A DNA stretch of 64,000 bases from a virus. The notes below the pieces were generated by a model that was not told the origin of the DNA, searched no databases, and saw only the letters and a list, made by a program, of their open reading frames with translations. The DNA is taken from UHGV virus genome UHGV-0385297. One strand, 5' to 3'. This document shows positions 4,406-62,671 of the stretch, piece by piece. Numbering within the stretch: the first letter of the stretch is position 1; every line of letters begins with the position of its first letter. Both the position numbers and the translations under genes were made by a program.

Positions 4406-5020
4406 TTAATAACCGAGAAGCTTTAGAAAATCCTTCATCTGTTTTTCAGATAACTTTTCAGAAGTGTAGAATGTATGACTGGTATACTTACCATCTTCAG
4501 ACTTACTTACGGTAAATCCATGAATATCATCATCTTCGTCAGTTTCTACATCCAGATTCATTTCACCGTCATGTAGCTCTGCACAATCTTCACAGTTTCC
4601 ATCACATTCATCTGTAAGACCAAATAGAATAACTTCCTTCTCAAGGTCTTTACATTCTTCAATCACGTCCTGAGAGACGGAACCGTCCATATCAATGTAG
4701 AAAATATCTGCATCATACAGATCACCGTAATCATCCAGTGGGATGACAGTTACATAACCTTCGTCAGTTACGCTTAACATATATTCAATATCTGGATCGT
4801 CATCAGTAAGATCAACCCTCCAAATACTGGTTTCATCCAGATCCATAACCTCGTCAAAAATGTATTCGACCAGATCTCTGCCCGCGATCAGAGCTACAGT
4901 TTTATCTGTATGATATAAATGATGAATGAACTTATATGCTAATTCTGTGTAGTCATAAACAGTGATAATGTTTAAATTTTCTTTAACTTCAGGTGTTTTA
5001 TTTTCAGTTACCTTTTTCAT
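4406..5020 (-). CDS. Highly acidic hypothetical protein (possible DNA mimic)
   Basis: D/E-rich runs such as LDVETDEDDDIHGF and DLTDDDPDIEY suggest an anti-restriction-type mimic; this is inference only. Confidence 0.5.
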   Translation of the reverse strand: MKKVTENKTPEVKENLNIITVYDYTELAYKFIHHLYHTDKTVALIAGRDLVEYIFDEVMDLDETSIWRVDLTDDDPDIEYMLSVTDEGYVTVIPLDDYGDLYDADIFYIDMDGSVSQDVIEECKDLEKEVILFGLTDECDGNCEDCAELHDGEMNLDVETDEDDDIHGFTVSKSEDGKYTSHTFYTSEKLSEKQMKDFLKLLGY

Positions 5021-8197: not shown

Positions 8198-9343
8198 TTA
8201 AGAACATAATAAAAGAGAGTCTTTATTTAGACTCTCTGGATTTATTATATAAGTTTTATCGTTATTAAAAAAATAATTATCTAAAATAGAATTTATATTG
8301 TCTCGCTCCCAATATGGAATACGCATTAATGGAATATTATAATCTATACAATGAAGATTCTTTGCCTGATCACGTTCTTTATTTTCCGTAAAATTAATGC
8401 TTGCAATTTCGATGCCATCTCCATTAAAATCGATAGGCATGTAATGTTGTTCTCCATCAAATTCAATCGCCATATTTAGTTTTGGTAAGTAAAAATCAAA
8501 TCTCAATGGGTTATCCCAATAGGCAGTATAAATTTCATGAGTGTCATGTTCATAAACATAATTATGCTCTTTTAAATAAGCTAAGATTGTTTTTTCTCCA
8601 ATGGAACAAGTACATTCATTGCATTTCGTTTTACCTTTTAAAAATAATCCATAACTTGTAGTATAGGGCTGACCGCATACCTCACAAGAAATTAAAAGGT
8701 TATAATCATTATAAGATGTATAATTCGATAATAATTTATTTTTCCCATTTGCTTCTATGGTTGCACGTACTTCTTCTATTGAATATTTTTGTTTTTCAAC
8801 CATAGATTCTCTGCCACAATAATAACATCCTCGTCCAGATTTAAGATGTATCCAATTATTCCATTGAATACCTTTATCTATATGTTTATTACAAATATAA
8901 GGCATTTTTGTTTCATTATTTACATAAATTGATGGCATCATAATACAATCATTATCTTTGAAAGTTGAAATCATTTTATTTAATGTTTCAACTTTTTTCG
9001 GGATATTTCTAGCTTCCCATTTTTCTTTTACTTTACCATGGATGTTTGGAGACGCAGTACCATATCTAATCTTTTTAACTTCAACACCTTTTATAGGCGC
9101 ACAATCACGACATGCCACCTTGGAAACAATTGTCGTACCTCTATAATATTTTTTTACTTGCATAGAAAATATTTTTCCACAATAGTCACATTGTACATCA
9201 ATAAATTTATCACTTGAATGGGGAATATCTTCGAACCTTACTTCAAATTTATCTCCAAACTTTGTAAACCGATATCCTTTTTCTTCATAATAAGATTTTT
9301 GTGAGCCATTCCATTCTACTAATAATTTTTCTGTAATAACCAT
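8198..9343 (-). CDS. Multi-zinc-ribbon protein with a C-terminal PD-(D/E)xK (DUF559-like) endonuclease domain; putative homing endonuclease
   Basis: About six CxxC modules precede the motif FDFYLPKLNMAIEFDGEQH...RD..K. The ATG at 9343 has a GAAAGGAA RBS; the track start at 9367 is TTG. Confidence 0.55.
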   Translation of the reverse strand: MVITEKLLVEWNGSQKSYYEEKGYRFTKFGDKFEVRFEDIPHSSDKFIDVQCDYCGKIFSMQVKKYYRGTTIVSKVACRDCAPIKGVEVKKIRYGTASPNIHGKVKEKWEARNIPKKVETLNKMISTFKDNDCIMMPSIYVNNETKMPYICNKHIDKGIQWNNWIHLKSGRGCYYCGRESMVEKQKYSIEEVRATIEANGKNKLLSNYTSYNDYNLLISCEVCGQPYTTSYGLFLKGKTKCNECTCSIGEKTILAYLKEHNYVYEHDTHEIYTAYWDNPLRFDFYLPKLNMAIEFDGEQHYMPIDFNGDGIEIASINFTENKERDQAKNLHCIDYNIPLMRIPYWERDNINSILDNYFFNNDKTYIINPESLNKDSLLLCS

Positions 9344-9370
9344 TTCGCAACGTTCCTTTCGTAACAAAGA

Positions 9371-13668: not shown

Positions 13669-14532
13669 CTAAGCTTTTCTATTTGTGGTATTACGTTTTT
13701 CGTTATATTTTTTATATCTAATTAAATCATTTTTTCTCTTACACTCACCACAATACATTTTCTTATTTCCTGTTTTTTCAATCAGTGCGCCACATTGTTT
13801 ACAGCGAGTGTACTTATTATTGTGTCCACGCTTAACTCCATAATATTCTTTCTGATAATTTCGAATATAATAGGAAAGAGAACGATTTATGTACTTAACA
13901 TAGAAATGATCTTCAGTAATAAAATCAAAATTATTTACAAGCTTTGTCTTATCTTCATACTCGTCAATCAATTTACAATTGTCAAAACACTTTCTAAGAA
14001 AACCCTCAATTATGATTTTGTACTCGTTCCAGGAAAGGGTCATTTTTTCTTTCTGAAATCTTTCTTTCGTGGTTAAAGCTTTATCCATAATGTCATCTAT
14101 GACAGAAGTAGCATTTTCTTCGGTCATATCTACACCAGAAGCCCATTTGTAATACAATTGTTTTGGCTTTTTGAGCAAATCCATATATTCCTTATTTAGA
14201 ATTACTTCTTTATCAAAATATTTCGTATAAATATTATTTATTTTTTGCCTTATAATTGAACACCAATTTTGATTTTTGGAAACAGATTTATAGTATTTAT
14301 ATTCAATCATGGACCATGCATCAAATACTTGTCCAACTGGTGTTCCCAGTAAATTCTTTGCTACCTTAAATCGAATAGCTTTCTTATATGTTCTTCTTTT
14401 ATTTCCACATGACCAGATGGCGGAGCAGAACGAAGAGAAAACTTCGTCCTTTTGCTCCTGAGTCTGTAGTTCTTTGTATTTTTCTATAATTTCATATAGA
14501 AATGTTTCGTTACAGTCGTAAATATGTATCAC
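13669..14532 (-). CDS. Hypothetical protein with a C-terminal zinc ribbon
   Basis: It carries CKQCG...CGEC at the C-terminus. Its start overlaps the end of the polymerase gene by 23 nt. Confidence 0.5.
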   Translation of the reverse strand: MIHIYDCNETFLYEIIEKYKELQTQEQKDEVFSSFCSAIWSCGNKRRTYKKAIRFKVAKNLLGTPVGQVFDAWSMIEYKYYKSVSKNQNWCSIIRQKINNIYTKYFDKEVILNKEYMDLLKKPKQLYYKWASGVDMTEENATSVIDDIMDKALTTKERFQKEKMTLSWNEYKIIIEGFLRKCFDNCKLIDEYEDKTKLVNNFDFITEDHFYVKYINRSLSYYIRNYQKEYYGVKRGHNNKYTRCKQCGALIEKTGNKKMYCGECKRKNDLIRYKKYNEKRNTTNRKA

Positions 14533-17140
14533 CTACTTCAAATTCATAATATTTTCCAAGATATTCATAAGTATTATATGATTTGTATGGAACTTCTCGA
14601 ATAGAAATATTTCGCTTTGGATTAGTATTATTTTTTAAATTCTCAATAATATATTCTCCATAAGCAGCCCAAGCTAAAGATTTACTGATTGAAAGAGAAG
14701 AGTATGAAGTTGCAATAACATAATTGGCAATAACATCTTCGTCAAGTTTAAGTTTTTCAGAAATATTATCTTTATATTTCTTTACAACTTCGTCCATACT
14801 AAAATCATTATTTTCATCTTTATGTAAATTTAGATGCTGCTTTATTTCATCTGCATACATATTGATGAATTTCTTACACTCTTTAATGACTCCTTTATCT
14901 TTTAGATTAAGGTCATTGTTGACGATTAAGCATCTTGTATCTATAAGATCATTAACACTGTTATCCCATTTAATATTCTTTTTCTCCCATGTCTCGATGT
15001 ATTCACATAATTCATTCATAGGAGAAGGAGACCTATAGGCATTCAATTTTTCTTTCTCATCTGGTTCAACTCCCTTATTTTTACTAAGAATATTCTGATA
15101 CGTTTTCATTTTTTGAGGATAATTATGAAGCAAGAAATACGGTAGCTGTTTTAAATGTTTTCTCAGACCACTATTCATATGCCACCTAAAACCGGTTTTA
15201 AGAAAATCAATTTCTTTGCCCTGGAAAATTCTTAGAAGAGAAGAGGAATCAGAGTATAACTTCTGAATATCTGGATTTGTTGTATACCGATTCTCAATGC
15301 TTGTTGCTACATTGGTTATTTCACCAATACGGTTATCTCTTGTCATTACTTCATACTCAATTAAATTTTCTTTCGTATATGGTTTTGACTTTGCTGTAAC
15401 CTTATCTTCGACATCAAGAATAATATGTTTGTCAATTTTTGAACCAATAACAATTGGTTCGTTGCACAAAAAGAAAATATCCCCGTCAAAATCTGCCCCT
15501 CCCTGCTGCGGGGCAGATATATCATACATATTAAACATCACGACATCTTGATCTTTAAAATATCCGAACCATTTATTTAAAATGTCATTTCGCACAATTT
15601 GAATCTTGTTTACTTCAGATGGGTCCACAAGAGGAGATCTAAAAGAAGCACAATATCCTGGTTCAAAATTTGCAGTATATAATTCTCTTTCTTTTAAGCA
15701 ACCGACTGGATTTTCTCCGACTGCATATTGAAGATAACCAATCATATCACCAACACCTGTATGATAAAAACCAGAACAATAAATTTTTCCTACTTTTGCC
15801 TCATCAATGGATTTTTTTAATTTTCTATAAATAAACTGCTTTACTGCAGGATCCTTCAACATTACATCATTGATCAATGCTGCTTCGAGATATTTACTTT
15901 CTGGCTCATATCCATCTGTATCATTTATACCCATGAATTTGTAGGTATAAAATTTATCTCCTTTAATAATCTTCTCGAATAGGTTAGTAGTGTATTTTGC
16001 CAATTTGATGATTTTTCCATCATTGTCAGGATTTAAAACGTCATATTCTTTTCTATTTTTATCTACAAAACTATTGATGTATTTCTCATTCCATAGATCA
16101 AGACATTGTAAATACTGAAAATTCATTCTGGTGTACTTGTTTAAGTGCTTTACATGATGGCTATACTTACTAATACCTAATTTAAACTGATATTTCTGTA
16201 ATGTCTTCATATATTCAATCCATGCATCATTTCCATACTTTGATTTAAAAATCTTATGACCTTTAAACATTGAGATGTTCCAGATACAATCAATATCATC
16301 GATTTTATGCTCATATCCATAGATATCAGTAATAGTAGTGTATCCCCATTCCTTTAGAATTTGTTTAAATGGAACATATACGGAATATCCTTTTATAAAT
16401 GGCAGACGAACCTGGTTTCCAATAACGTCATAGCCTAAATCCAACTGTGTACTAACAGTTTTCATAAATTCTCTTTCATGACAACCACATCCATCAAAAG
16501 GAGATAATCCTATATCTCTTAAACCTTCTTCAATTTCTCTAACTTTATATTTTTTGGACTCACCAGTTTCTTTATCTACGAAAGTTTTTTCTTTTTCTAT
16601 GACATATTTGATAAGCTGATCATTTAAAGTTTTTTCATATTCACCGATGATAACAATATTTGGAATATAATCTTTAATGAGAGTACAGGAGCTAAACGGG
16701 AGACATCTTTGCGCTTCATATTTAGAAATAACGCACTCATCAATTTCAATATCCATTTGAGTGATCATGTATAATTCATCGAAAATTTCGTCACATACAA
16801 AAGCAGTAATACCGTCTTTTCCCTGAGATGCAGATTTTCCAAAACGAGAATAATGAGTACCGTTATACGTAAATCCATTATTAAGAATATCTCGCAGTGC
16901 GGTTTCTTGTTTTGGATTCTTTTTTGCGACTATAAGCATAAGCTCTTTAATATGTGTTGAAAATCTACCTCTTAGCCTTTGAATCTGATCAAACAATAAG
17001 GAATCACCTTGTTTAATAAGATATTCATTATCTATTTCTTCATTTTTACTTAGACTCAAATCATATTCTGAATCAATGAGTTTTTTGATTGGTAACTTAA
17101 CCAAAGTGTATTGAATTGATTTTATAATAAACACCACCAT
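14510..17140 (-). CDS. YonO-like single-subunit RNA polymerase candidate
   Basis: This 876-aa protein contains QQGGADFDGDIFF. ADFDGD is the invariant Mg-binding loop of multisubunit RNAP beta-prime and of the SPbeta-prophage YonO polymerase. Its size and its HU-like neighbour also fit YonO. Confidence 0.55.
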   Translation of the reverse strand: MVVFIIKSIQYTLVKLPIKKLIDSEYDLSLSKNEEIDNEYLIKQGDSLLFDQIQRLRGRFSTHIKELMLIVAKKNPKQETALRDILNNGFTYNGTHYSRFGKSASQGKDGITAFVCDEIFDELYMITQMDIEIDECVISKYEAQRCLPFSSCTLIKDYIPNIVIIGEYEKTLNDQLIKYVIEKEKTFVDKETGESKKYKVREIEEGLRDIGLSPFDGCGCHEREFMKTVSTQLDLGYDVIGNQVRLPFIKGYSVYVPFKQILKEWGYTTITDIYGYEHKIDDIDCIWNISMFKGHKIFKSKYGNDAWIEYMKTLQKYQFKLGISKYSHHVKHLNKYTRMNFQYLQCLDLWNEKYINSFVDKNRKEYDVLNPDNDGKIIKLAKYTTNLFEKIIKGDKFYTYKFMGINDTDGYEPESKYLEAALINDVMLKDPAVKQFIYRKLKKSIDEAKVGKIYCSGFYHTGVGDMIGYLQYAVGENPVGCLKERELYTANFEPGYCASFRSPLVDPSEVNKIQIVRNDILNKWFGYFKDQDVVMFNMYDISAPQQGGADFDGDIFFLCNEPIVIGSKIDKHIILDVEDKVTAKSKPYTKENLIEYEVMTRDNRIGEITNVATSIENRYTTNPDIQKLYSDSSSLLRIFQGKEIDFLKTGFRWHMNSGLRKHLKQLPYFLLHNYPQKMKTYQNILSKNKGVEPDEKEKLNAYRSPSPMNELCEYIETWEKKNIKWDNSVNDLIDTRCLIVNNDLNLKDKGVIKECKKFINMYADEIKQHLNLHKDENNDFSMDEVVKKYKDNISEKLKLDEDVIANYVIATSYSSLSISKSLAWAAYGEYIIENLKNNTNPKRNISIREVPYKSYNTYEYLGKYYEFEVGDTYLRL

Positions 17141-21985: not shown

Positions 21986-22849
21986 ATGAGAAGATCGTTA
22001 AAGGATTTGCGCGGTGTCGAAAAAGATTCATATAAAGGTTTGCCTGAAGAGCTGAGAGAGTTCAATTATTATATTCCTGATTGTGGCAATGTAATTATGG
22101 CTGTGCCTGAGTGTTTATTAGAGAAAGCAGAAGAAAACGGTGAACTGGATATGTTTGAGTGTCCGTTTCCTGTAAAGTATGTGTTGGAAAAAGGATATAG
22201 AATATATAAAAATCACGTTATTTGTGAAGGAAAGTATGATAAGTTTGTTGGATTGCAGGTTGAAGAGGATTATTATGAATATAATAGACCAAGTAAGAGT
22301 AGTGGCGGATCAATATATACAAATGCGTTGATTAATGCTCTCAAAGGTAAGGTCTTTCCATCTTATATAGGGATGTCAGAAGGCACATTATTTGATATGA
22401 GTGATACAGGAGCTACTTTGACCATGTTTATGTATGATCCTGAAAAAGATGAAATTGCACAGTTTGATAGGTCTAAACCAGTTGAGATTCGATTTGCTGC
22501 TATAAAAGATGTCATTATGATGACTATTAAATTGGGCAATTTAGAATGGTGGGAAGCACCATACAGTGTTCATTTAAGTAGGAATTTGACACGGATGCCG
22601 GTCATTGAAGATGGTAAGGGTATTAATCTTACTTTGATGTTAGTTAATATTAGAACTGGAAGAGTAGAAAATGTAAAAGTAGTACAGCTATCTACAGAAT
22701 TTAGTGTTGCGCTATGCAAGGCTATTGATAAGCAGAGATCTACGAAGTTCTCGAATACAATGTATAATATAAATATTGATCGGTTATATGATATGTATAC
22801 TGCGGATCAGCTGGCAGAAATGGGTACTGCAAGGTGTAAGATTGGTTAA
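21986..22849 (+). CDS. Hypothetical protein
   Basis: A 287-aa ORF with a GGAGGAG RBS. Confidence 0.55.
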   Translation: MRRSLKDLRGVEKDSYKGLPEELREFNYYIPDCGNVIMAVPECLLEKAEENGELDMFECPFPVKYVLEKGYRIYKNHVICEGKYDKFVGLQVEEDYYEYNRPSKSSGGSIYTNALINALKGKVFPSYIGMSEGTLFDMSDTGATLTMFMYDPEKDEIAQFDRSKPVEIRFAAIKDVIMMTIKLGNLEWWEAPYSVHLSRNLTRMPVIEDGKGINLTLMLVNIRTGRVENVKVVQLSTEFSVALCKAIDKQRSTKFSNTMYNINIDRLYDMYTADQLAEMGTARCKIG

Positions 22850-23340
22850 TGGTAGAGTGGATTTGTAGTATAGATATAATGGTAGATACGACAAGTTAAT
22901 AATCGGATACGTTAGAACGATCCCTGGGTAATGGTATGTTATGTACTGTTACTTGGGGATTTTTTGTTGTGTAATTGTGTTGGGATGGATCGGAATGGAT
23001 GAAGGGTATGTTTTGATGTGTTATGAGTTGAAAACATGGAATCGTAAATTCCCTTTAATATAATGAAGAAACACGTTTTAAGATTAGAATTTTAATTTTT
23101 GGGATGTTGCATTTTTTGAAATTTTGGTGCGATTTTTATTGAGATTGCGGGATTTTTACGATAAGGGGGCCGATAACAGTTTTTGAGGTGGTGACGAGGG
23201 GATTTTGGGCGTAGTTGTGGGGAAATGGAGTGTTGGGATTTGGAATGTAGATGGGAGAGGAGCGTGATACACCTGGATGAGTTGGAAGTGGTGGGTGATT
23301 TGGAAGAGATGTTCAAATTTTAATTTGAAAGTTTGATTTT
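22850..23340. other. GT-rich, nearly cytosine-free tract with no ORF
   Basis: About 490 bp of G/T runs (GGGATTTTT three times, GTGTTGGGAT twice, GGGG runs). The opposite strand is C/A-rich and G-poor. Confidence 0.7.
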
Positions 23341-23467
23341 GAACTTAGTGTGTAGATGAAACAGCTACCGGCTCTGGTGAAAACACTTTAGCACTTTAAA
23401 GTTTTAACCAGCCCCCATAAACAATAATAGTAATAATTACTGTTATTTTACACGGTTTTTTCCTATT

Positions 23468-23481
23468 TTACCGTAGCCGAA
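23468..23481. promoter_or_regulatory. LexA (Cheo/SOS) box CGAACATATGTTCT
   Basis: It matches the Bacillus-type consensus CGAACATATGTTCG at 13 of 14 positions. Confidence 0.6.
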
Positions 23482-23506
23482 CATATGTTCTGTTATTTGA
23501 TCCGAC

Positions 23507-23520
23507 TTCTGGCAATCGAA
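23507..23520. promoter_or_regulatory. LexA (Cheo/SOS) box CGAACATATGTTTG
   Basis: A 13 of 14 match to the consensus, 39 bp from the first box. Confidence 0.55.
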
Positions 23521-23662
23521 CATATGTTTGCTTATTGACTGTGAGCTATGATAGTTTTTTAAACTTTTACATGTAGTATTGATAACTACATGTAATGATA
23601 TTTAATACTATAAGAGGTAGTTCGACAGTGAAAAAATAATATCGAAAAAATTAAAATTGTTA

Positions 23663-23691
23663 TTGACAATCACACTATCATGTGATATATT
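23663..23691 (+). promoter_or_regulatory. Consensus promoter with a TCACA-N6-TGTGA operator in its spacer
   Basis: TTGACA, a 17-nt spacer (atcacactatcatgtga) and TATATT. Confidence 0.7.
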
Positions 23692-23763
23692 ATAGTCAAG
23701 TTCATAAAGAACGACAGCGGGAACGCTGTTATAGCACTTTTAAAAGTTTTTAGAAAAAAGTGC

Positions 23764-23792
23764 TTGACAATCACATGAACGTGTGATATAGT
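23764..23792 (+). promoter_or_regulatory. Second tandem promoter with the same operator
   Basis: TTGACA, a 17-nt spacer (atcacatgaacgtgtga) and TATAGT. Confidence 0.7.
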
Positions 23793-23799
23793 CATTAAT

Positions 23800-24400
23800 G
23801 TAAGAACAAAGTAGTTCAGTTCTTACAGCCGCTAAAATGCCCATGTGGGGCGGTGGCAAGTTCCTTGTCAATTTAATAGGAATAAAGCCCATGAATTGAA
23901 AAATTCACAGGCTTTAAAAGTTGGTTTGATAAACCAAACCGTAGCAAGTTCAGTTTATCATTCTATCTTTCATTTGTCAAGTCTGGCAAGTGTTTTCCTA
24001 TTAATCGGCTACCAGTGACGGCACTGGTGGACTTTGCGCAACGGTCAAGATAACAATACTGGATGCCCGCAAGAGTGTCTAGCGTTTACGCAAGTAAGCG
24101 CATTGTGAAAATACCCGTTGTGGGTACATTGAAAAATAAACAACTTATACAGTGTTTTATAAAGCGTTTGGCATTTTCAACAACGGGTGAATTCCCCGTT
24201 AAAATGTCCGTGTAGCGTATAAAAGCGTTACACTAGCAAGCTGGACTTAGCACGACTGCGGTTGTGAACGTGTTCGCATTTGCGCACTTAGCTTGCTACT
24301 GGTGAAAATCCCACACTAGGATTCTGAAATCTTGCCTAGTAGTGACCCGTAAGAAGGTAGGAAGTCGGTTTAAGGCTGAGAAGCATTTTGGACAATAAAT
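23800..24400 (+). ncRNA. Candidate large structured RNA or leader (GC-rich island, no ORF)
   Basis: GC is about 45-48% against roughly one-third in the flanks. Nested inverted repeats include AAAGCC..TGAATT..AATTCA..GGCTTT, GGTTTG..CAAACC, CCCGTTGT..ACAACGGG and TAGCAAGCT..AGCTTGCTA. It lies downstream of two strong promoters. Confidence 0.3.
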
Positions 24401-24538
24401 AAAATGATTGTAAGACGTGTCGTTATACATAGGTCAAGGGGCGGACTAGCACTACCAGTCTGTCCTTTGCTCGTGTGCATAACACGGCAACTACAAAAAA
24501 TAATTTTAATTCCGCAATGCGGAGAAAGAGGTATTTAT

Positions 24539-25339
24539 ATGAAGATTAACTTTTTAGCAAACTTTGAGAAAGTAACTATCAACGCTATTGTGCCAGCGGT
24601 ACAGTATGAGGCTAACCTGATGCTTCAGACTATGAATGATGAAGCAATCGCTAAACAGGATAAAATCATCTCTAATCAAAAAGGTGGTTACTCTGAGGAC
24701 GAAATTAAGGTAGCAAAGGACAAAAAGAGTAAACTGGAAGCCGCTAACGCTGAACTTGTAATTGCTAATGCTGAACTTGAGCCACGCTACAAGTCTACCC
24801 TGGAAGTAGTTACCAGTGCTAACAATGGTCATGTATCTAATGACCTTGTAGCGTTCCGTAACATTTTACGGCTTGTGGCATGCTCTGATAATAGCAAGTT
24901 TTTCCGCTATGCCATTATCACAGATGTCGATTTTTCAACGTTTTATGACCTGTTTGAAAAGTGCCATTCTATCGATGGTGACTTTGATGACAATGGTATG
25001 CGTGTATACCTTAATCAGGCTTGGAACACCCATAAAGACATCAAAGCTGAGATTGAAAAAATCCTTAAAAAAATGTTTTCACTCGTTGCTGACAGTGATT
25101 TAACCAAAAAAGTTACTATCAGATTTAACAAAACAGACCTTGGCATCTTACATGAGTGTTACGTCACAGGTCTGACCGTTTCTGCTAAAAAGGATAAAAA
25201 CGGTGAGGTAGTAGTGGGTGATTATAAATTTAGAACTGTAATCACTCGTAAGAAAGACAAGGATGGCAATGATAAGTTTGAAGGTGACAAGTTCAAAGAA
25301 CTCATTGCTAAAATTGCGTTTGGAAAACTGTATGCATAG
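24539..25339 (+). CDS. Hypothetical protein (first gene of the plus-strand block)
   Basis: An ATG with a GAGAAAGAGG RBS. The longer track ORF would start inside the structured region. Confidence 0.6.
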   Translation: MKINFLANFEKVTINAIVPAVQYEANLMLQTMNDEAIAKQDKIISNQKGGYSEDEIKVAKDKKSKLEAANAELVIANAELEPRYKSTLEVVTSANNGHVSNDLVAFRNILRLVACSDNSKFFRYAIITDVDFSTFYDLFEKCHSIDGDFDDNGMRVYLNQAWNTHKDIKAEIEKILKKMFSLVADSDLTKKVTIRFNKTDLGILHECYVTGLTVSAKKDKNGEVVVGDYKFRTVITRKKDKDGNDKFEGDKFKELIAKIAFGKLYA

Positions 25340-42108: not shown

Positions 42109-42858
42109 ATGGTAAAAACAAAGGAAGATTTAACAGGGAAAAAGTTTGGTAGGTTAACAGTTGTAAATCAGGCATACGATTTTATTAGTGGTGGAAGAAA
42201 AATTGCTGCATGGAATGTATTTTGTTCTTGCAATCCAAATAAAATTTTTCGAGTAAGACAAAAGGACTTAAAATCAGGACACACAAAAAGTTGTGGTTGT
42301 ATTGTTTCTGAAAATGCAAAAACAGTTGGGAAAATAAATGACGGGAAAAATGCAAAGAAATATAATTCATATAACCTAAACGGTGAATATGGTGTTGGAT
42401 ACACACTGAATGGAGAAGAGTTTTATTTTGATAAAGAAGATTATGAAAAAATTAAAAGTTATTGTTGGAGAATTGATACTCGTGGATATGTTACGACAAA
42501 TATTGATAAAGTCCCTGTTTTTATGCATAGATTAATTTTAAATATTACAGACAAAAATATTATTGTAGATCATATTTATCATAATAAAAATGACAATAGA
42601 AAATCAAAATTAAGATTATGTACGAACAAAGAAAATTGCAGAAATGCAAAAATTGGTATAAATAATACATCTGGTGTTGTTGGTGTTTTTTATAACAAAA
42701 ATAAAAATAAATGGGAAGCAACAATAAAGGTTGATGGAAAATCAAAATATTTGGGGAGATATGACAAAATTGAAGATGCAATAAATTGTAGATTAGAGGC
42801 ACAAAATAAATATTTTGGTGATTTTTCGAATAAAAAGAATGGAGAACAACGTGTATAG
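42109..42858 (+). CDS. HNH homing endonuclease with an AP2 DNA-binding domain
   Basis: The HNH_3-like motif is HRLILNITDKNIIVDHIYHNKNDNRKSKLRLCTNKENCRN. The AP2 motif is SGVVGVFYNKNKNKWEATIKVDGKSKYLGRY. Confidence 0.8.
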   Translation: MVKTKEDLTGKKFGRLTVVNQAYDFISGGRKIAAWNVFCSCNPNKIFRVRQKDLKSGHTKSCGCIVSENAKTVGKINDGKNAKKYNSYNLNGEYGVGYTLNGEEFYFDKEDYEKIKSYCWRIDTRGYVTTNIDKVPVFMHRLILNITDKNIIVDHIYHNKNDNRKSKLRLCTNKENCRNAKIGINNTSGVVGVFYNKNKNKWEATIKVDGKSKYLGRYDKIEDAINCRLEAQNKYFGDFSNKKNGEQRV

Positions 42859-55630: not shown

Positions 55631-56182
55631 ATGCAATACATAATAACTAATGGTGAGAAATATTTAAAACAGAATCCTCAAGCTGGATATTTGGTTGTGG
55701 ATAATTTTAGTGATGCATCGATATGGCAAGTAAAAGAAAAGGCAAACAATGTAATAAAAACCTGTCCATTATGTAGGACTTATGATATGGAAACCATTGA
55801 ACTTACAACAAATGATATTGAAGATACTCCTATCAACTATGATTTAGAAGAAAAGATAGGAGAAATTGAACGGTTTACGGAACAACTTCAAAGCCGAAGA
55901 ATTATACTTCTAAAGTTGATACAGAGAGAAGATTTAAAAATTGTAGACATAGAACATGTTGCTGAGTTTAAAAATTTAGGAGCTGCGGCTGGCTATAAGA
56001 TTTACAAATTACTACATGACTGCAAATGCAGAAGAAGGGATTATAAAAATGAGCTGAGGCAGATAGATGGTATTCTTGGTAAAACATTAAATGCAAAAGG
56101 AATTATATGTATGAAAAAAGCAATAAAAAGTGTACAGGAACAGAAATATGAGCCTCGGATTTTAAAAGAATTATTTCAGTAA
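55631..56182 (+). CDS. Hypothetical protein
   Basis: RBS TCGGAGGTAAAT. Confidence 0.55.
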   Translation: MQYIITNGEKYLKQNPQAGYLVVDNFSDASIWQVKEKANNVIKTCPLCRTYDMETIELTTNDIEDTPINYDLEEKIGEIERFTEQLQSRRIILLKLIQREDLKIVDIEHVAEFKNLGAAAGYKIYKLLHDCKCRRRDYKNELRQIDGILGKTLNAKGIICMKKAIKSVQEQKYEPRILKELFQ

Positions 56183-57209: not shown

Positions 57210-57695
57210 CTATTTTTTAGCATCGCTTAATTCCTTAATCTGTTCTATTAGCTTATCATATTTATCAGCTGATATAACAACATGTCGGCGCATAAAAGAG
57301 TGTACTATTTGGTTTGCAACGTCTTGAGCTATCTGCGCCATTTTTTCTTCATCTTTTGTATCGACATTTACTTTTATAGGAGTGCTTGGATCATTCGGAT
57401 TATTTAAACTAACAGTAAATGTTGATTCTTGAGATTTTTCTTTTGGATGGTCGATGTCAAAAACAATGTCAGGTGAATCGCACCATTTTGTTATATCATC
57501 ATTAATAAGAATATCATTTGGCGTACAGTGAAAAGTATTACATAAAGAAGTAAGGACATCGAAATTTATTCGTGTCGTTTCACTAGAGTATAATTGTTTT
57601 GCAGGATTATAATTTACACCTATTGCCTTAGCAAATTTGTTGATATTACCGTCAAACATGACATCTACATATTTTTTTATATTAAGTCTATACAT
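57210..57695 (-). CDS. XRE-family HTH regulator
   Basis: The HTH is INKFAKAIGVNYNPAKQLYSSETTRINFDVLTSL. It is transcribed divergently from the MazF-like gene and converges on the recombinase gene. Confidence 0.65.
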   Translation of the reverse strand: MYRLNIKKYVDVMFDGNINKFAKAIGVNYNPAKQLYSSETTRINFDVLTSLCNTFHCTPNDILINDDITKWCDSPDIVFDIDHPKEKSQESTFTVSLNNPNDPSTPIKVNVDTKDEEKMAQIAQDVANQIVHSFMRRHVVISADKYDKLIEQIKELSDAKK

Positions 57696-57721
57696 GCATA
57701 ACCTCTATATAAAAGAGAAAA

Positions 57722-57786
57722 TTAACGTCTACAATAACAGTATACAATAAAAAAGTGAAAAAGTAAATTAATGTCTACAATAACAC
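57722..57786. repeat. Two direct copies of TTAA(C/T)GTCTACAATAACA plus an inverted ATTGTAGA flanking the -35
   Basis: The direct copies are at 57722-57739 and 57769-57786; 57769 forms TCTACAAT..ATTGTAGA around the promoter. Confidence 0.7.
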
Positions 57787-57815
57787 TTGACATTAATTGT
57801 AGAGTGTAATATACT
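57787..57815 (+). promoter_or_regulatory. Promoter of the MazF-like gene
   Basis: TTGACA, a 17-nt spacer, and TATACT. The track's TTG start coincides with the -35 element and is therefore not a start codon. Confidence 0.55.
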
Positions 57816-57861
57816 AAAATTGTTCAAAGAAATGAATACTAAAGGAAAGGAGGATGCAGAA

Positions 57862-58221
57862 GTGGAAGGCGGTTATAAGAAGTTTGATGTAGTATTAGTA
57901 GATTTTGGTGAAGAAATATTAGCTGGCGAACAAGGTGGCATTAGACCGGCAGTGATTGTACAGAATAATATAGGAAATAGGTATAGTGTTTCTACGGTTG
58001 TGATGCCGTTTACGTCACAACCCAAAAGTTTAAAGCAGTCTACGCATTCTCTTTTTCCTGCGAATGAAAAATATGGTTTAACAAAAGACTCCTATCTTTT
58101 AGGAGAATGTATTAGACAGGCTTCTGAACGCAGAATTATAAAAAAAATGGGAACCATTTCTGACAATGCTGGTAGAGAAGAAGTAAAAAGAGTTTACTTC
58201 TCAAATTGGGGAAATGACTAG
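57862..58221 (+). CDS. MazF/PemK-family toxin (mRNA interferase)
   Basis: FDVVLVDFGEEILAGEQGGIRPAVIVQNNIGNRYSVSTVVMPFTSQ follows the PemK pattern. A GTG start with an AGGAGG RBS is preferred; ATG 57832 is the alternative. Confidence 0.65.
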   Translation: MEGGYKKFDVVLVDFGEEILAGEQGGIRPAVIVQNNIGNRYSVSTVVMPFTSQPKSLKQSTHSLFPANEKYGLTKDSYLLGECIRQASERRIIKKMGTISDNAGREEVKRVYFSNWGND

Positions 58222-58230
58222 GAGGATATT

Positions 58231-58509
58231 ATGGAGTATATATTAATGACAGTAGAAGAGGCAAAGAAGATGGCAAAAAAAGATGCTGTTGTTCTTGTAG
58301 CGGTAAATGATTTAGAAAATCCCAAGGATATAAGTGAATTTTCAAAGAAGAGATTTTTTGAATGTGAGAAAATGATTAAGGAAGCAGAAACCATCGCATC
58401 GGTCTGTGATGATTTTATTAGGCAGCTTAGATGTTATACGGAAAGACAAGATGCATTTCCTGATCTAAGACTAAAAGGGAAGGAGAGTGTGATCCTTTTG
58501 CGGGAATAA
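58231..58509 (+). CDS. Hypothetical protein downstream of the toxin (possible antitoxin or immunity protein)
   Basis: RBS TAGGAGGATATT. Confidence 0.5.
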   Translation: MEYILMTVEEAKKMAKKDAVVLVAVNDLENPKDISEFSKKRFFECEKMIKEAETIASVCDDFIRQLRCYTERQDAFPDLRLKGKESVILLRE

Positions 58510-58517
58510 AATAATAC

Positions 58518-58531
58518 CGAACAAATGTTCG
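58518..58531. promoter_or_regulatory. LexA (Cheo) box CGAACAAATGTTCG
   Basis: A 13 of 14 match to CGAACATATGTTCG. Confidence 0.6.
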
Positions 58532-58540
58532 ATAAAGTAG

Positions 58541-58569
58541 TTGACAGAACAAATGTTCGGCTATATAAT
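58541..58569 (+). promoter_or_regulatory. SOS-controlled promoter with a LexA box (AGAACAAATGTTCG) in its spacer
   Basis: TTGACA, 17 nt, TATAAT; the second box sits at 58546-58559. Confidence 0.55.
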
Positions 58570-58593
58570 AGCAAATGTAAAGAGATTCCAGAA

Positions 58594-58728
58594 ATGGAAA
58601 CGGAAAATAAAAAAGACTACCATCTGATAATGTGGTTGCCGCCACAAAACAGATATACGGTAGTCTTAATACATAAGCACCCATCAAGATACTATGCAAT
58701 ACATATTATACTTTGTTTCATTTCATAA
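58594..58728 (+). CDS. Small SOS-regulated ORF (44 aa), speculative
   Basis: It is the only ORF between the SOS promoter and the terminator at 58821, and it has a weak RBS. Confidence 0.25.
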   Translation: METENKKDYHLIMWLPPQNRYTVVLIHKHPSRYYAIHIILCFIS

Positions 58729-58820
58729 ATCAAGTTAATCAAAGCAAGTATCTGCTGAAATTTTCCAATCTTTATTTTTACAACAAGAGAATATAAGCAT
58801 AGGGCTGTAGTCAAGCGGTT

Positions 58821-58850
58821 AATGCAATAAATTATTGCATTTATTTTTAA
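58821..58850 (+). terminator. Rho-independent terminator
   Basis: AATGCAAT..ATTGCATT followed by TATTTTTAA. Confidence 0.55.
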
Positions 58851-58870
58851 TACAAAAAAATATATAAGGA

Positions 58871-59638
58871 GTGATTTTTATTAGTTCAAGAGCGTTAGTT
58901 GATAACTATTCAAAAGAAGAATTAGAAAAAATTGTTACTAATTCATTTTCTATGGCAGAAGTTATTGAAAAATTGGGATATAAAACAAGAAATGGAAGTA
59001 ATTTTAAAACAATTTTGAAACGAATTAAAGAATACAATATTAATTGTGATCATTTTAGAGTTCCTGAAAGAGTTGTAAGAACTTTTGAAAATACATTTTG
59101 TAAAGATAGTACCGCAAGTCAAAATACATTAAGAAGTGCTTTTATAAAAATAAGTGATAATACTTTTTGTAAAATATGTGGACAATCAAATATATGGAAT
59201 GACAAAGAACTTACAATGATTTTGGATCATATCGATGGGAATAATCATAATAATGTGATTAATAATTTAAGATGGATATGTCCCAATTGTAATAGTCAGT
59301 TACCGACCTTTGCTGGTAGAAATTTAAAAGAGAGAAAATCTCAAATTGATGGAAAAATAAAATATGTTCCAATGATAAAAAGAAAAAAGAACATGAAAAT
59401 ATGTCCTATTTGTAATATAAACGAAATTTCTATGAATAGTAAAATGTGTCTTGAATGTTATAACAAAGACAGAAGGAAAAACATTCCTCCAAAAGAAGAA
59501 TTAGAAAAATTAATATACATAAAATCTTTTGTAGAAATTGGCAAGAAATATAATGTTACAGATAATGCGGTAAGAAAATGGTGCAAATCTTATGGATTGC
59601 CGTTCAGATATGGTGAATTACATAAATATGGAGCCTAA
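58871..59638 (+). CDS. HNH endonuclease (homing type)
   Basis: LDHIDGNNHNNVINNLRWICPNCN is an HNH motif. The start codon is unclear; GTG 58871 abuts the AAGGAG sequence. Confidence 0.65.
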   Translation: MIFISSRALVDNYSKEELEKIVTNSFSMAEVIEKLGYKTRNGSNFKTILKRIKEYNINCDHFRVPERVVRTFENTFCKDSTASQNTLRSAFIKISDNTFCKICGQSNIWNDKELTMILDHIDGNNHNNVINNLRWICPNCNSQLPTFAGRNLKERKSQIDGKIKYVPMIKRKKNMKICPICNINEISMNSKMCLECYNKDRRKNIPPKEELEKLIYIKSFVEIGKKYNVTDNAVRKWCKSYGLPFRYGELHKYGA

Positions 59639-59686
59639 TTACATTACAAATCACACAATCGGTGGTCAATAAAAGACTGCCGGTAT

Positions 59687-59760
59687 GGATCGTTAGCTCA
59701 GTTGGTTAGAGCAATCGGCTCATAACCGATCGGTCACAGGTTCAAGTCCTGTACGATCCA
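59687..59760 (+). tRNA. tRNA with anticodon CAT (Met or Ile2 type)
   Basis: A 74-nt cloverleaf: acceptor GGATCGT/ACGATCC, D-arm GCTC..GAGC, anticodon arm ATCGG-cTCATaa-CCGAT, T-arm ACAGG-TTCAAGT-CCTGT. Confidence 0.75.
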
Positions 59761-59786
59761 TTGACGAAAAAGGAGGGAAAAGGAAA

Positions 59787-60401
59787 ATGGACTATGTAAT
59801 CAGAAATAATAGGGGAGTTTATATCAAAATCGATTCAGGTGGTAGACCTGTCTCATGCAATTTCAAAGATAGAACACTGATGGATCGCAACAAAGCAAGA
59901 AATGTTTTAAATTCGCTTCCAAAACATATGAAGAAAATGAAATTCTTCATGGAAGCCATTCCTGAAATCCCTCCGAGAGTAATTGAGACGCCACAGACGT
60001 ATAAACCATCTGAGAATATTACTCGTTGGGTGGAACAATTTGGAACCTGCGGAGATATTTTCAACTCGGCTGTAAAACGAAGCAATGAGCTGATCGGTAT
60101 TCTGTATGATCTTGATAAGGGATTGCTCAATATCCTTCATTCAATCGAGATTGAGAAGCCGAAAGATTTATATACAGGCTGGCAGCTCTATAAGGCTATC
60201 CGTGAAAACCGTACTCAGCGTAGAGAAACAAAAGATGAAATCCAGATTATCCAGAATGTTCTGACGAATATCAATCCAGAATGTGTTCAACGTGAACGGA
60301 TTCAAAAAGCCGTGGATGGACTTTTCCATAGAAAATATACATATCGAATCATCGAAGGAAACGAAGATGATGAGAGTGAAACAGAAATACATAACAATTA
60401 G
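59787..60401 (+). CDS. Hypothetical protein
   Basis: RBS AAAGGAGGGAAAAGG. Confidence 0.55.
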   Translation: MDYVIRNNRGVYIKIDSGGRPVSCNFKDRTLMDRNKARNVLNSLPKHMKKMKFFMEAIPEIPPRVIETPQTYKPSENITRWVEQFGTCGDIFNSAVKRSNELIGILYDLDKGLLNILHSIEIEKPKDLYTGWQLYKAIRENRTQRRETKDEIQIIQNVLTNINPECVQRERIQKAVDGLFHRKYTYRIIEGNEDDESETEIHNN

Positions 60402-60412
60402 GTAGGTTCAAT

Positions 60413-62671
60413 ATGGGGAAAGTAGAAAAAATAAATCTGAATGAAAAACAGATGGAATTAGTTACATATTATTCTGAAAATGATATGGCGAGATTAAAAC
60501 GGATTTGTAATCCAATCATTAATATGAAGAACGTAGATCAGAAGGATTATGATGACTTGTACAGTGATGCACTGAAAGTTCTTCTGGAAAGTGTTCAGAC
60601 ATTTGATGAAACAGCAGATTGTTCCTTTAATACATTTCTTACAGGAAATATTAAACGGTCATTCTATGATTGGAGCCGTGATCAGCTGACTTGGAAGCGG
60701 TGCAACCTGGAATATGAAACAGATGAAAATGGAGAGATTAAAAAAGATAAGAATGGAAAACCAATAAAAAAGAAAGTCTATGATGTTTCTATGGATGTTC
60801 CATTGGAAGATGGATCTGATTTAAGAGAAAAAATCCCGTCCAATTTCAGTGTAGAGACAGAACTTGGATTAAATGGAGATGATACTGTAGAAAAGGTAAA
60901 TATACTTCTTGATAGTATGCCACGGTTACAGAAGCAAATTACTATTTTGAAAATGAGGAAAGTTCCTGTAGAAAAAATTAAGAAGATCTTAAATATATCG
61001 CAAAGCGATTATGAAAACGCAGTAGAGCGGATTAAGAGAAATGAAAATATGGAAATGTTTTTAAAAGACACGAAATATAATATGGAGGAATATAATATGA
61101 AAGACAGAGTAATTGCTATTAGCGAATCCGAAGATTACAGAATGGACAAATTACCAATGTTCACATTATTGCAGCAGAAAAAAGATGGTGACATTAACTG
61201 TAAATACATTTTACAGAGAAAACCATTTCAGTGGTCAGAAGAAGAAGCGAATCGTTATTTCTGTAGAATATTAAGTTCTCTTCCTGTTCCTGAAATCGTT
61301 TTATGTGAGCAAAAAGTAAAGGAATTGATTATTGCATATTTAATTGATGGTTTACAGCGTTTATCTTATGCGGAGGCATTTAGAAATAATCGTATTAAAA
61401 TTGGAAGTGTAGGTGCAGAAAGACACTTAATTGAATATAGAGAATATTCTTTAGACGAAAACGGAAATCGAATTTTAGATGACAACGGATTTCCAACCTA
61501 CGAATTAAAAATATGTGATGTTATTGGAAAATACTACAAAGATCTTCCTGATGAATTAAAAAAGAGATTTGATGTATTTAATTTCAATGTGACTAAGTTT
61601 TTTAACTGCACGGATCAGCAAATTGCGGATCACCTTCGCGACTACAACAACCACTCATCTATGAACAAGGAGCAGTTGGGACTGACCAAGATTACTACCG
61701 TAACAGCTGGGAAAATTAAGAAAATCTCTGAGAAGAATATGTTTTTCAAAAATTGCTGTAAAATCACTACAACTAATGAGACTAAAGGTAAACTGGAACG
61801 TGTAGTTGCCGAAGCAATTATGCTTTTGTTCCATAAGGACGATTGGAAAGCTAAATTGGAAAATGCCTATAAGTATGTAGATGAAAATGCAACAGACGAA
61901 GAGTTTGAACAGCTTAATTCTGATTTAAACCGTTTGGAATTAGCAATTGGAGAAAATAATAAGGAAGTTACCAAGTTATTTACTCCAGCTGCTATTCCTA
62001 TGTGGGTGGCGGTATTCAATGAGTTTACAAAGTATAACATTGAAGATAGCAGATTTGTAGACTTCCTTAATGCATATGTAACCGATTTAAAGGATCGTAC
62101 AGTAGATGGTGTAAGCATGAAAACTTTTAAATCAGAACAGAGTAAAAAGAGAACTACCATCATGGGAAAGATCAATCTGTTGGTTACTCTTATGAAAGAT
62201 TATTTACATATTGAAGATACAGAAGAAACAGAAAATACATATGAAGAAACAACTGATGAAAAAGTAACTGAAAACGAGAATAATACAGTAGAAGAGACAA
62301 CAGAAGATAATGTTACTACAGAAGAAATGGAATCAGTAGTAACTGAATCACAGTCAGAAGAAGATCATGAGTTACAGTTCGTAAAAGAGGTAGCTGATCC
62401 AAATGTAGAACAGGAAGATATTGAACTGTATAAGGATTTTATTGATGACTATCTTAAGTTAGACTCCTGTGTATACAAAGTTGGTATGCCGGTATTGTTA
62501 GCACTTATGGCATATGCTTGTAATGCAGAGAAAGACGAAGAGTTTAGTGAATGGCTCAATGAAATGGAAAAACAGCATAGAATTTTCACAGGTTCAGAGA
62601 AAGATAATTATGAGAAGTTGAAAGCAGAATTTCTTCAGTTTTTAGATTCTCATAACAATAAAGCAGCATAA
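60413..62671 (+). CDS. Sigma-70 family (region 2 plus region 4) N-terminal domain fused to a DUF262 (ParB/sulfiredoxin-fold) domain and a long C-terminal extension
   Basis: Region 2 reads DDLYSDALKVLLESVQTFDETADCSFNTFLTGNIKRSFYDWSRDQ and region 4 reads LQKQITILKMRKVPVEKIKKILNISQSDYENAVERIKRN. From about aa 250 comes KLPMFTLLQ...QRKPFQWSEEEANRYF...IAYLIDGLQRLS, the DUF262 DGQQRLT-type signature. The C-terminal 400 aa are acidic and helical. Confidence 0.55.
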   Translation: MGKVEKINLNEKQMELVTYYSENDMARLKRICNPIINMKNVDQKDYDDLYSDALKVLLESVQTFDETADCSFNTFLTGNIKRSFYDWSRDQLTWKRCNLEYETDENGEIKKDKNGKPIKKKVYDVSMDVPLEDGSDLREKIPSNFSVETELGLNGDDTVEKVNILLDSMPRLQKQITILKMRKVPVEKIKKILNISQSDYENAVERIKRNENMEMFLKDTKYNMEEYNMKDRVIAISESEDYRMDKLPMFTLLQQKKDGDINCKYILQRKPFQWSEEEANRYFCRILSSLPVPEIVLCEQKVKELIIAYLIDGLQRLSYAEAFRNNRIKIGSVGAERHLIEYREYSLDENGNRILDDNGFPTYELKICDVIGKYYKDLPDELKKRFDVFNFNVTKFFNCTDQQIADHLRDYNNHSSMNKEQLGLTKITTVTAGKIKKISEKNMFFKNCCKITTTNETKGKLERVVAEAIMLLFHKDDWKAKLENAYKYVDENATDEEFEQLNSDLNRLELAIGENNKEVTKLFTPAAIPMWVAVFNEFTKYNIEDSRFVDFLNAYVTDLKDRTVDGVSMKTFKSEQSKKRTTIMGKINLLVTLMKDYLHIEDTEETENTYEETTDEKVTENENNTVEETTEDNVTTEEMESVVTESQSEEDHELQFVKEVADPNVEQEDIELYKDFIDDYLKLDSCVYKVGMPVLLALMAYACNAEKDEEFSEWLNEMEKQHRIFTGSEKDNYEKLKAEFLQFLDSHNNKAA

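Follow-up and report, generated by a model that had tools for sequence, protein, structure and literature searches.

At 58.5 kb of the 64,000-nucleotide (nt) stretch of the virus genome UHGV-0385297 analyzed here (hereafter, the window), two LexA boxes accompany a strong promoter, P_LexA, and the boxes and the promoter are real and, judging by their sequence and conservation, very likely functional. We propose that the boxes are operators of the host LexA, that transcription from P_LexA is opposed by a convergent antisense RNA, and that the promoter serves a sigma-factor operon located downstream; we put the probability of this reading at about 60%. The predicted unit has three conserved parts, namely, the LexA-boxed promoter, the convergent antisense RNA, and an operon encoding a 204–amino acid (aa) protein, a sigma factor, and a DUF262 protein, while transfer RNA (tRNA) genes and HNH endonuclease genes are variable cargo of the leader. 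Control of phage promoters by host LexA is already established (coliphage 186 Tum is a LexA-controlled antirepressor), and the operator-in-spacer design is itself common among gut phage contigs, which means that the boxes by themselves are no novelty. The combination of a LexA-blocked promoter, a face-to-face antisense RNA gene, and a sigma operon appears to be undescribed, and it is found, as far as sequence can tell, among the large phages of gut Clostridia that are related to SPβ, a group that is prevalent and uncultured. The features of the window that are relevant to this proposal are listed in Table 1.

Table 1. Features of the 58.5-kb unit, its surroundings, and the second pair of LexA boxes (window coordinates).
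Feature	Position	Strand	Description
LexA box	23478-23491		CGAACATATGTTCT
LexA box	23517-23530		CGAACATATGTTTG
PemK/MazF-like toxin gene	57832-58221	+	upstream of P_LexA, separate promoter
Conserved 92-aa gene	58231-58509	+	upstream of P_LexA, separate promoter
LexA box 1	58518-58531		CGAACAAATGTTCG; one mismatch to consensus; 9 nt upstream of the -35
P_LexA	58541..58569	+	TTGACA (58541-58546)-17-TATAAT (58564-58569), 12/12; predicted start near 58576
LexA box 2	58546-58559		AGAACAAATGTTCG; starts on the last -35 base and fills most of the spacer
Predicted ~95-nt cis-antisense RNA	~58698 to 58604	-	own promoter, two hairpins, T-run
Antisense RNA parts		-	5′ hairpin ~58698-58670; long terminator hairpin 58667-58613; T-run, complement of 58614-58604
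P_minus	58705..58733	-	TTGATT-17-TATAAT; -35 at 58733..58728, -10 at 58710..58705
tRNA-Gln remnant	58801..58822	+	5′ 22 nt only; TAGGGCTGTAGTCAAGCGGTTAA
HNH homing-endonuclease cassette	58823..59633	+	811 nt; AT hairpin 58821-58841, T-run, HNH open reading frame 58871-59638
tRNA-Met	59686..59761	+	variable leader cargo
204-aa protein gene	59787..60401	+	first conserved coding gene downstream of P_LexA
Sigma-70-family factor fused to DUF262/GmrSD_N domain	60413..62671	+	752 aa; Sigma70_r2; TIGR02937 6e-8; phrog_351

To locate LexA boxes, the whole window was searched with CGAACATATGTTCG, allowing up to two mismatches, and 100 shuffles served as a control. Exactly four sites were found, each with one or two mismatches, compared to 0.21 expected by chance; none of the 100 shuffles reached four. 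The stricter core GAAC-N4-GTTC gave four matches in the window versus 0.68 expected, three of which are LexA boxes and the fourth of which lies inside a tRNA gene. The boxes thus conform to the Firmicutes LexA operator, a 14–base pair (bp) palindrome CGAAC-N4-GTTCG with intact arms, and in three of them the GAAC-N4-GTTC core is perfect. GAAC-N4-GTT[CT] is the site recognized by LexA of Firmicutes/Clostridia, as documented for Bacillus and Clostridium (PMC4234289), and LexA-bound SOS boxes have been documented in SPβ (PMC8270828). A preliminary description of the window had listed the same four sites, all of which were recovered, although the first pair had been placed 10 nt too low (at 23468 and 23507 instead of 23478 and 23517). 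It had also described a TTGACA-17-TATAAT promoter at 58.5 kb with one box in the spacer, and this holds: the promoter is a 12/12 match, box 1 lies upstream of it, and box 2 sits in its spacer, where the operator overlaps the core promoter.

The design is preserved well beyond the window. Relative contigs and loci are numbered L001-L155, and the lineages referred to below are A1, A2, B, C, D, E, F, G, H, and I. Two scans of viral contigs with the 92-aa protein, which is encoded just upstream of the 58.5-kb boxes, yielded 28 loci, 20 of them distinct; lineages E and F were found via the 204-aa protein, and lineages G, H, and I via a DNA pattern scan. In all 20 distinct loci, the 92-aa gene is followed by a box, 7 to 9 nt, TTGACA, a spacer box, and the -10, and the more distant lineages E, F, G, H, and I keep the operator-promoter design as well. 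The LexA-boxed layout is seen in about ten diverged lineages of 90- to 220-kb SPβ-like phages with a YonO-type RNA polymerase. Equivalents of P_LexA score 11 to 12 out of 12 in every relative. The alignment columns that do not vary across lineages are the GAAC and GTTC arms and both promoter hexamers; the centers and flanks of the boxes drift, the flanking DNA is no longer alignable, and the neighboring protein is down to ~50% identity in some loci. This pattern suggests that the sites behave like genuine operators, in agreement with the earlier proposal of LexA control at this locus.

Box 2 adjoins the -35 in the lineage of the window and the -10 in other lineages; having shifted from one side to the other, it still lies on the core promoter, so the overlap was maintained while the position moved. 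Box 1 is found at the same place in most lineages, is decayed in lineage E, and is absent in lineage H. Since lineage E keeps only the spacer box, the latter is the universal element. In L068, box 2 has retained its arms around an inverted center (AAAT to ATTT). This is one of several small inversions that distinguish near-identical phages in this region (L068 3275-3900 versus window 58505-59760); others affect the loop at the tip of the leader hairpin (TTGCCG to CGGCAA) and an entire hairpin upstream of tRNA-Met, stems or arms being preserved in all cases.

The same arrangement, TTGACA-N4-CGAAC-N4-GTTC-TATWAT, was detected in at least 120 viral contigs, many of them unrelated and 15 to 60 kb in length. 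One operator common to unrelated phages points to a shared host protein. In the unrelated 15- to 60-kb contigs, the boxed promoter directly precedes a small open reading frame (ORF), and these small phages are without the antisense unit described below. Such small ORFs, for example, those starting M..E.YR.KIIE, follow the promoter with a LexA box in its spacer in many of the contigs L079-L155 (IMG/VR, 15 to 60 kb) and are candidate LexA-controlled small regulators. In a group of ~15-kb contigs, a second box is located at about +12, before an ORF starting MTIDEYTSLTR.

A second promoter, P_minus, faces P_LexA from within the leader. Its position is conserved, and the equivalents in most other lineages feature an extended -10, TGTAATAAT or TGTAACAAT. 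P_minus is predicted to give rise to a short cis-antisense RNA with a terminator ending ~27 nt past the start of the sense transcript, so that complementarity to the sense RNA would be complete from roughly +27 to +122. In every lineage, a hairpin is present ~30 nt after the -10 of P_LexA, with a folding energy of −18 to −26 kcal/mol (seven of seven measured). On the plus strand, 8 or 9 of the 12 nt upstream of this hairpin are A in seven of seven lineages, and no free T-run comes after it. Because the A-rich run is located 5′ of the hairpin on the plus strand, the minus strand reads as a hairpin followed by a T-run, i.e., has the form of an intrinsic terminator. P_minus lies ~95 nt to the right of the terminator hairpin in the lineages, and the predicted antisense RNA ranges in length from 83 to 129 nt, always with a short hairpin at its 5′ end and then the terminator hairpin. 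This two-hairpin and T-run layout recurs in about ten lineages that are not alignable by sequence; in lineages G to I, the minus-strand terminators were read by hand and with a script.

The fold of the predicted antisense RNA is more stable than that of dinucleotide shuffles in lineages A1 (z = −5.24, the value for the window), A2 (−2.45), B (−5.88), C (−4.94), D (−3.03), E (−7.68), and F (−6.18); for lineage I, a cruder mononucleotide shuffle gave z = −5.6. The inner stem, ATCTG/CAGAT in A1, is CAAGC/GCTTG in A2, a compensatory swap by which pairing is kept. When 58300-59000 and 22700-24600 were compared to Rfam using gathering and E-value thresholds, no known RNA family and nothing near a gathering score was found. 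Overall, these results argue for a small RNA gene that has its own promoter and terminator and is placed on the opposite strand over the 5′ part of the LexA-controlled RNA, as a sequence-level prediction. Where the preliminary description left room for a small RNA on the sense strand, the conserved small RNA candidate is thus on the other one.

Downstream of the leader, the cargo differs between lineages: tRNA-Gln, tRNA-Gln with tRNA-Lys, tRNA-Lys, tRNA-Met, or no tRNA gene at all. In L004, a degenerate tRNA-like sequence that is not called by ARAGORN, a probable tRNA pseudogene, lies at 4766-4836, the place of the tRNA-Met of the window. In relatives that do not carry the HNH gene, the boxed promoter is the sole strong plus-strand promoter upstream of the next genes, and no plus-strand terminator-like site was found between the boxed promoter and the sigma gene in L024 and L031. 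The 204-aa protein is a paralog of a 183-aa ORF at 55631-56182 (25% identity, E = 3e-9), which is located just upstream of an integrase-like gene. Its AlphaFold2 model [predicted local distance difference test (pLDDT) of 78.6] consists of an N-terminal alpha/beta domain and a long helical hairpin. The sigma factor of the window is a divergent member of the sigma-70 family; in other lineages (L007 and L074), sigma and DUF262 are encoded by separate genes. PADLOC detected no complete known defense system, the sole match being that of the L074 DUF262 protein to NsnA (4.5e-17). The neighborhood in relatives contains TIR-domain, Thg1-like, Abi_alpha, and TnpB/Cas12f-like genes (L074 1216-2175, 8750-9688, and 10362-10621; L073 1770-2774), which hints that the region doubles as a defense or accessory island.

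In the window, a hairpin with a T-run is present at 58821-58848, ~250 to 270 nt downstream of P_LexA (arms at 58821-58830 and 58832-58841). This hairpin is weak (−7.3 kcal/mol), and in the preliminary description it was taken for the terminator of a transcript of only ~270 nt. The tRNA-Gln gene, truncated in the window, is intact in L004 and L005, and homology between the window and L004 stops at 58822, inside the tRNA-Gln of L004. BLAST places the breakpoints at 58822 and 59634: the 811-nt HNH segment has taken the place of 132 nt of the ancestral DNA, among them the 3′-terminal 52 nt of tRNA-Gln. Its ORF matches phrog_10822 (2.5e-38). Among contigs with an identical 92-aa protein, there are zero, one, or two HNH genes, and L067, L068, and L069 have the same leader and an intact tRNA-Gln and are without both the HNH gene and the hairpin. 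With an HNH domain and clean presence/absence breakpoints among close relatives, the segment is an HNH homing endonuclease insertion. The breakpoints, the absence of the hairpin from HNH-free phages, and its low stability mean that the supposed terminator is the leading edge of this insertion. The 58.85-kb hairpin is therefore a terminator mimic and not a conserved transcript end, and without the HNH gene, the promoter would lead to the 204-aa/sigma/DUF262 operon. As a caution, homing-endonuclease insertions can produce apparent “short transcription units” that mislead a reading based on a single genome. The leader/tRNA region is an insertion hot spot: in L071 (3638-5466), two tandem HNH genes are found and no tRNA is left.

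The product suggested earlier for the short transcript was a 44-aa peptide. The corresponding ATG ORF at 58594-58728 lacks a Shine-Dalgarno sequence; in the near-identical L018 and L019, single-base indels in an A-run shorten it to 23 or 27 aa, and no related peptide could be read in lineages A2, B, C, and D. The leader is best regarded as noncoding. A link of DNA damage to the neighboring toxin and HNH genes had also been considered. The HNH gene does lie downstream of P_LexA, but as variable cargo. Upstream of P_LexA, the PemK toxin gene and the 92-aa gene are served by a separate promoter (57787-57815, TTGACA-17-TATACT) with a different operator, and the boxes therefore provide no link between DNA damage and the toxin. 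This promoter is associated with a 39-nt direct repeat holding GTCTACAATAACA twice and with an inverted ATTGTAGA (57712-57815), which looks like an operator set of the divergently encoded helix-turn-helix (HTH) protein (57210-57695, minus strand). The short-transcript, peptide, and toxin-link parts of the earlier interpretation are wrong.

The window is part of a large phage. It contains genes for PhoH, an exonuclease, a sliding clamp, a methyltransferase, Ant-type anti-repressors, and two tyrosine recombinases, three HNH endonuclease genes [8198-9367 (−), 42109-42858 (+), and 58871-59638 (+)], and six scattered tRNA genes. No close match was found when the window was compared to deposited phages at the DNA level. 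An 876-aa YonO-like single-subunit RNA polymerase is encoded at 14510-17140 (−); it is 30% identical over 81% of its length to proteins of the Thomasclavelia phages TR-TP1 and TR-TP2 and matches SPβ yonO more weakly, its nearest relatives being in Thomasclavelia, Enterocloster, and SPβ-group phages. On the basis of this polymerase, the phage groups with the SPβ-like phages of gut Firmicutes. The 92-aa protein was found in hundreds of public assemblies, on contigs of up to 222 kb; a scan of genome contigs with the 92-aa family found nothing. A relative of the 204-aa gene is located mid-contig in a 378-kb Lachnospiraceae metagenome-assembled genome (goat cecum), which suggests a temperate lifestyle and a Clostridia host. 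The element is thus probably a temperate SPβ-like phage of ~200 kb with a YonO-type RNA polymerase, whose host belongs to gut Clostridia such as Lachnospiraceae.

Taken together, the data can be accommodated by the following model. The ancestral layout, kept in close relatives, would be P_LexA, a leader of ~230 nt, variable tRNA genes, and the 204-aa, sigma, and DUF262 operon. In a lysogen, LexA bound to the spacer box would block RNA polymerase at a promoter of consensus strength, and the upstream box would add occupancy. The weaker convergent P_minus would constitutively produce the ~95-nt antisense RNA from within the leader, and this RNA, together with head-on transcription from promoters ~130 to 160 bp apart, would destroy or abort leaky sense transcripts. 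Upon DNA damage, LexA would be cleaved, and the stronger P_LexA would overrun P_minus and titrate the antisense RNA. The outcome would be a thresholded burst delivering tRNAs, the 204-aa protein, and the sigma factor. In the window itself, insertion of the HNH cassette into the leader truncated tRNA-Gln and brought along the weak terminator-like hairpin. The module could even be the induction trigger of this phage family, in which DNA damage acts through a LexA-gated promoter with an antisense threshold on the sigma operon, with no cleavable repressor or Sar-type antirepressor involved, but we regard this extension as rather doubtful. If true, the leader would be a tolerated landing pad for tRNA and homing-endonuclease genes in ~90- to 220-kb SPβ-like prophages of gut Clostridia.

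Several observations weigh against host LexA control of an antisense-thresholded sigma operon. A phage-encoded LexA-like protein was looked for in only 64 kb of a ~200-kb genome, and the Lachnospiraceae host lead comes from a relative with a 204-aa homolog that is ~48% identical, not from the window phage itself. The boxes are partly decayed in lineages D and F, and in lineage E, only the spacer box is present. RNAalifold run on a MAFFT alignment of ten antisense candidates returned no consensus and no covariation statistic, since the lineages are not alignable by sequence. The hairpin that came with the HNH gene may disconnect the operon from P_LexA in the window and in L001, and a hairpin after the tRNA in some lineages could stop part of the transcripts before the 204-aa gene. 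Last, a fold search with the model of the 204-aa protein matched generic coiled coils only and gave no informative match.

The limited reach of the search for a LexA-like protein bears on whether the boxes might be bound by a phage-encoded regulator, either a LexA homolog as in GIL01 gp6 or another HTH protein, rather than by host LexA. A LexA-like activator that works at SOS-like sites is known from GIL01 (PMC6182141), the window leaves out about two thirds of the phage genome, and several HTH proteins are encoded near the 58.5-kb boxes. We nevertheless consider this improbable, as the same CGAAC-N4-GTTC operator is found at the same promoter position in many unrelated phage contigs, no S24 motif or LexA-like ORF was detected in the window with an approximate query sequence, and the other regulated promoters of the window carry different operators. 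The antisense RNA invites a different comparison: a LexA-boxed sense promoter combined with a convergent cis-antisense RNA over the 5′ part of the sense RNA, in a neighborhood rich in toxin-antitoxin genes (PemK and HicAB), could be a type I toxin-antitoxin–like module, in which a constitutive cis-antisense RNA restrains a small SOS-induced toxin mRNA, as in symE/symR (PMC1891008) or tisB/istR-1. A toxin ORF with its start region under the antisense RNA was looked for, and no conserved ORF was found in the overlapped leader. The leader ORFs are conserved neither within nor between lineages, none of them is hydrophobic or has a ribosome-binding site, and the conserved coding genes begin more than 200 nt beyond the antisense RNA, which makes a module of this kind highly improbable.

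The two remaining alternatives concern the extent of the sense transcript. If P_LexA made only an SOS-induced RNA of ~270 nt ending at the 58.85-kb hairpin, with the 44-aa peptide or a sense small RNA as its product, then the presence of a hairpin with a T-run and of an ATG ORF would be accounted for, as would the folding of the 285-nt sense RNA (z = −4.05). Yet this fold signal is explained by the same hairpins as on the opposite strand, with the T-run only on the minus strand; the terminal hairpin is weak, borne by the HNH cassette, and absent from phages with the same leader, and the frameshifts in L018/L019, the lack of a Shine-Dalgarno sequence, and the lack of counterparts in other lineages speak against the ORF. 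We judge a transcript confined to the leader to be very unlikely. It is also unlikely, if less plainly so, that the main cargo of P_LexA is the tRNA genes, with SOS boosting tRNA supply and the protein operon being controlled separately. While tRNA-Gln, tRNA-Lys, or tRNA-Met follows the leader in most lineages and hairpins after the tRNA could terminate transcription in some of them, the 204-aa gene of lineage E follows the promoter with no tRNA gene in between, and the short leader of lineage I shows no evident tRNA either. In addition, tRNA identity varies, the tRNA-Gln of the window is destroyed, and no alternative promoter for the operon was found. We therefore favor LexA-controlled expression of the sigma-factor operon, tempered by the antisense RNA.

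Among known systems, the closest in context is that of SPβ-like Bacillus phages, where a small dimeric antirepressor of ~70 to 100 aa, Sar (YopT in SPβ), inactivates SroF (YopR), a master repressor with an integrase fold; the sar gene lies one ORF beyond sroF and is transcribed from a LexA-repressed promoter (Chmielowska et al., bioRxiv 10.1101/2025.11.27.690993). Both cases concern SPβ-related, in our case presumptively temperate, phages with a YonO-type RNA polymerase and a host LexA box on a phage promoter, which implies that the SOS signal enters via transcription and not via repressor autocleavage. The order of elements is also similar: an integrase-like gene on the plus strand, an HTH gene on the minus strand, and then plus-strand genes and SOS boxes are found in the window. 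In contrast to the Sar/SroF system, no conserved small ORF follows the boxes; the first conserved gene encodes the 204-aa protein, which has no YopT-like fold, and is followed by the sigma factor, and a convergent antisense RNA is predicted. The integrase-like gene is not a constant neighbor either, being absent from that position in L073 and L074. BLASTP revealed no similarity of the integrase-like, HTH, and 92-aa proteins of the window to SPβ YopR, YopS, and YopT. In the integrase-like protein, which is dissimilar to YopR, the catalytic-type motifs look intact on visual inspection, and the 92-aa protein gave a poor model (pLDDT of 62.5) that does not match 2DLB (YopT). Sequence searches of the PDB were uninformative, with no match for the 204-aa protein. 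If the unit described here is the SOS input, then the principle of Bacillus SPβ phages, in which LexA controls an antirepressor, would extend to a different effector, and the unit would offer a testable handle on the response of gut prophages to DNA-damaging drugs.

Individual elements of the proposed mechanism have precedents in other systems. In Escherichia coli symE/symR (PMC1891008), a LexA operator on the sense promoter is likewise combined with a cis small RNA across the 5′ region, but SymR overlaps the symE start codon and blocks toxin translation, whereas the overlapped region in the window is noncoding, with genes located more than 200 nt further. Face-to-face promoters ~130 to 160 bp apart are reminiscent of RnaG/icsA (PMC2879508) and of interference between pR and pL of coliphage 186 (PMC5001618). 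A further shared trait is a short, structured antisense RNA able to pair with the sense leader, in the window a predicted one. Neither RnaG/icsA nor pR/pL is LexA-gated, and in the window, the mechanism could be attenuation, cleavage by RNase III, or collision. At GIL01 P1, where gp7 is involved (PMC4551915), host LexA represses a phage promoter, so that DNA damage triggers phage genes, as proposed here; the window differs in phage family, in its sigma-factor operon cargo, and in the added antisense layer. The HNH cassette resembles other free-standing phage HNH insertions in having clean breakpoints among near-identical genomes, in its location in a tRNA gene, and in the small hairpin that precedes it, and there is nothing unusual about it.

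The second pair of boxes, at 23.5 kb, lies in a 1.7-kb ORF-poor stretch (22850-24536). Apart from the 10-nt offset, these sites from the preliminary description stand and are probably real LexA sites, but they bracket no promoter: no sigma-70–type promoter overlaps them on either strand, and a nearby TTGACT is lost in L047. The boxes are lineage specific, being retained solely among the closest relatives. L047 keeps both, L046 keeps one exactly and the GAAC-N4-GTTC core in the other, and no boxes were found within 3 kb of the equivalent locus in more distant relatives. The GGGATTTT motif is not significantly enriched near the pair. Some 130 to 185 bp downstream of the pair is the first of two strong tandem promoters with their own operators (23653-23790, plus strand; at 23663 and 23764). 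Both are located inside a 37-nt direct repeat and consist of TTGACA-17 and a TG-extended -10, with an ATCACA-N6-TGTGAT palindrome in the spacer of each; they may drive noncoding RNAs or a long leader. Between the boxes and the tandem promoters, a perfect 11-bp inverted repeat (TTACATGTAGT ... ACTACATGTAA, 23567-23595) is kept in L046 and L047. Farther along the plus strand, 26731-26800 matches the HDV-like ribozyme family RF02682 (HDV-F-prausnitzii) with 44.1 bits against a gathering score of 44.

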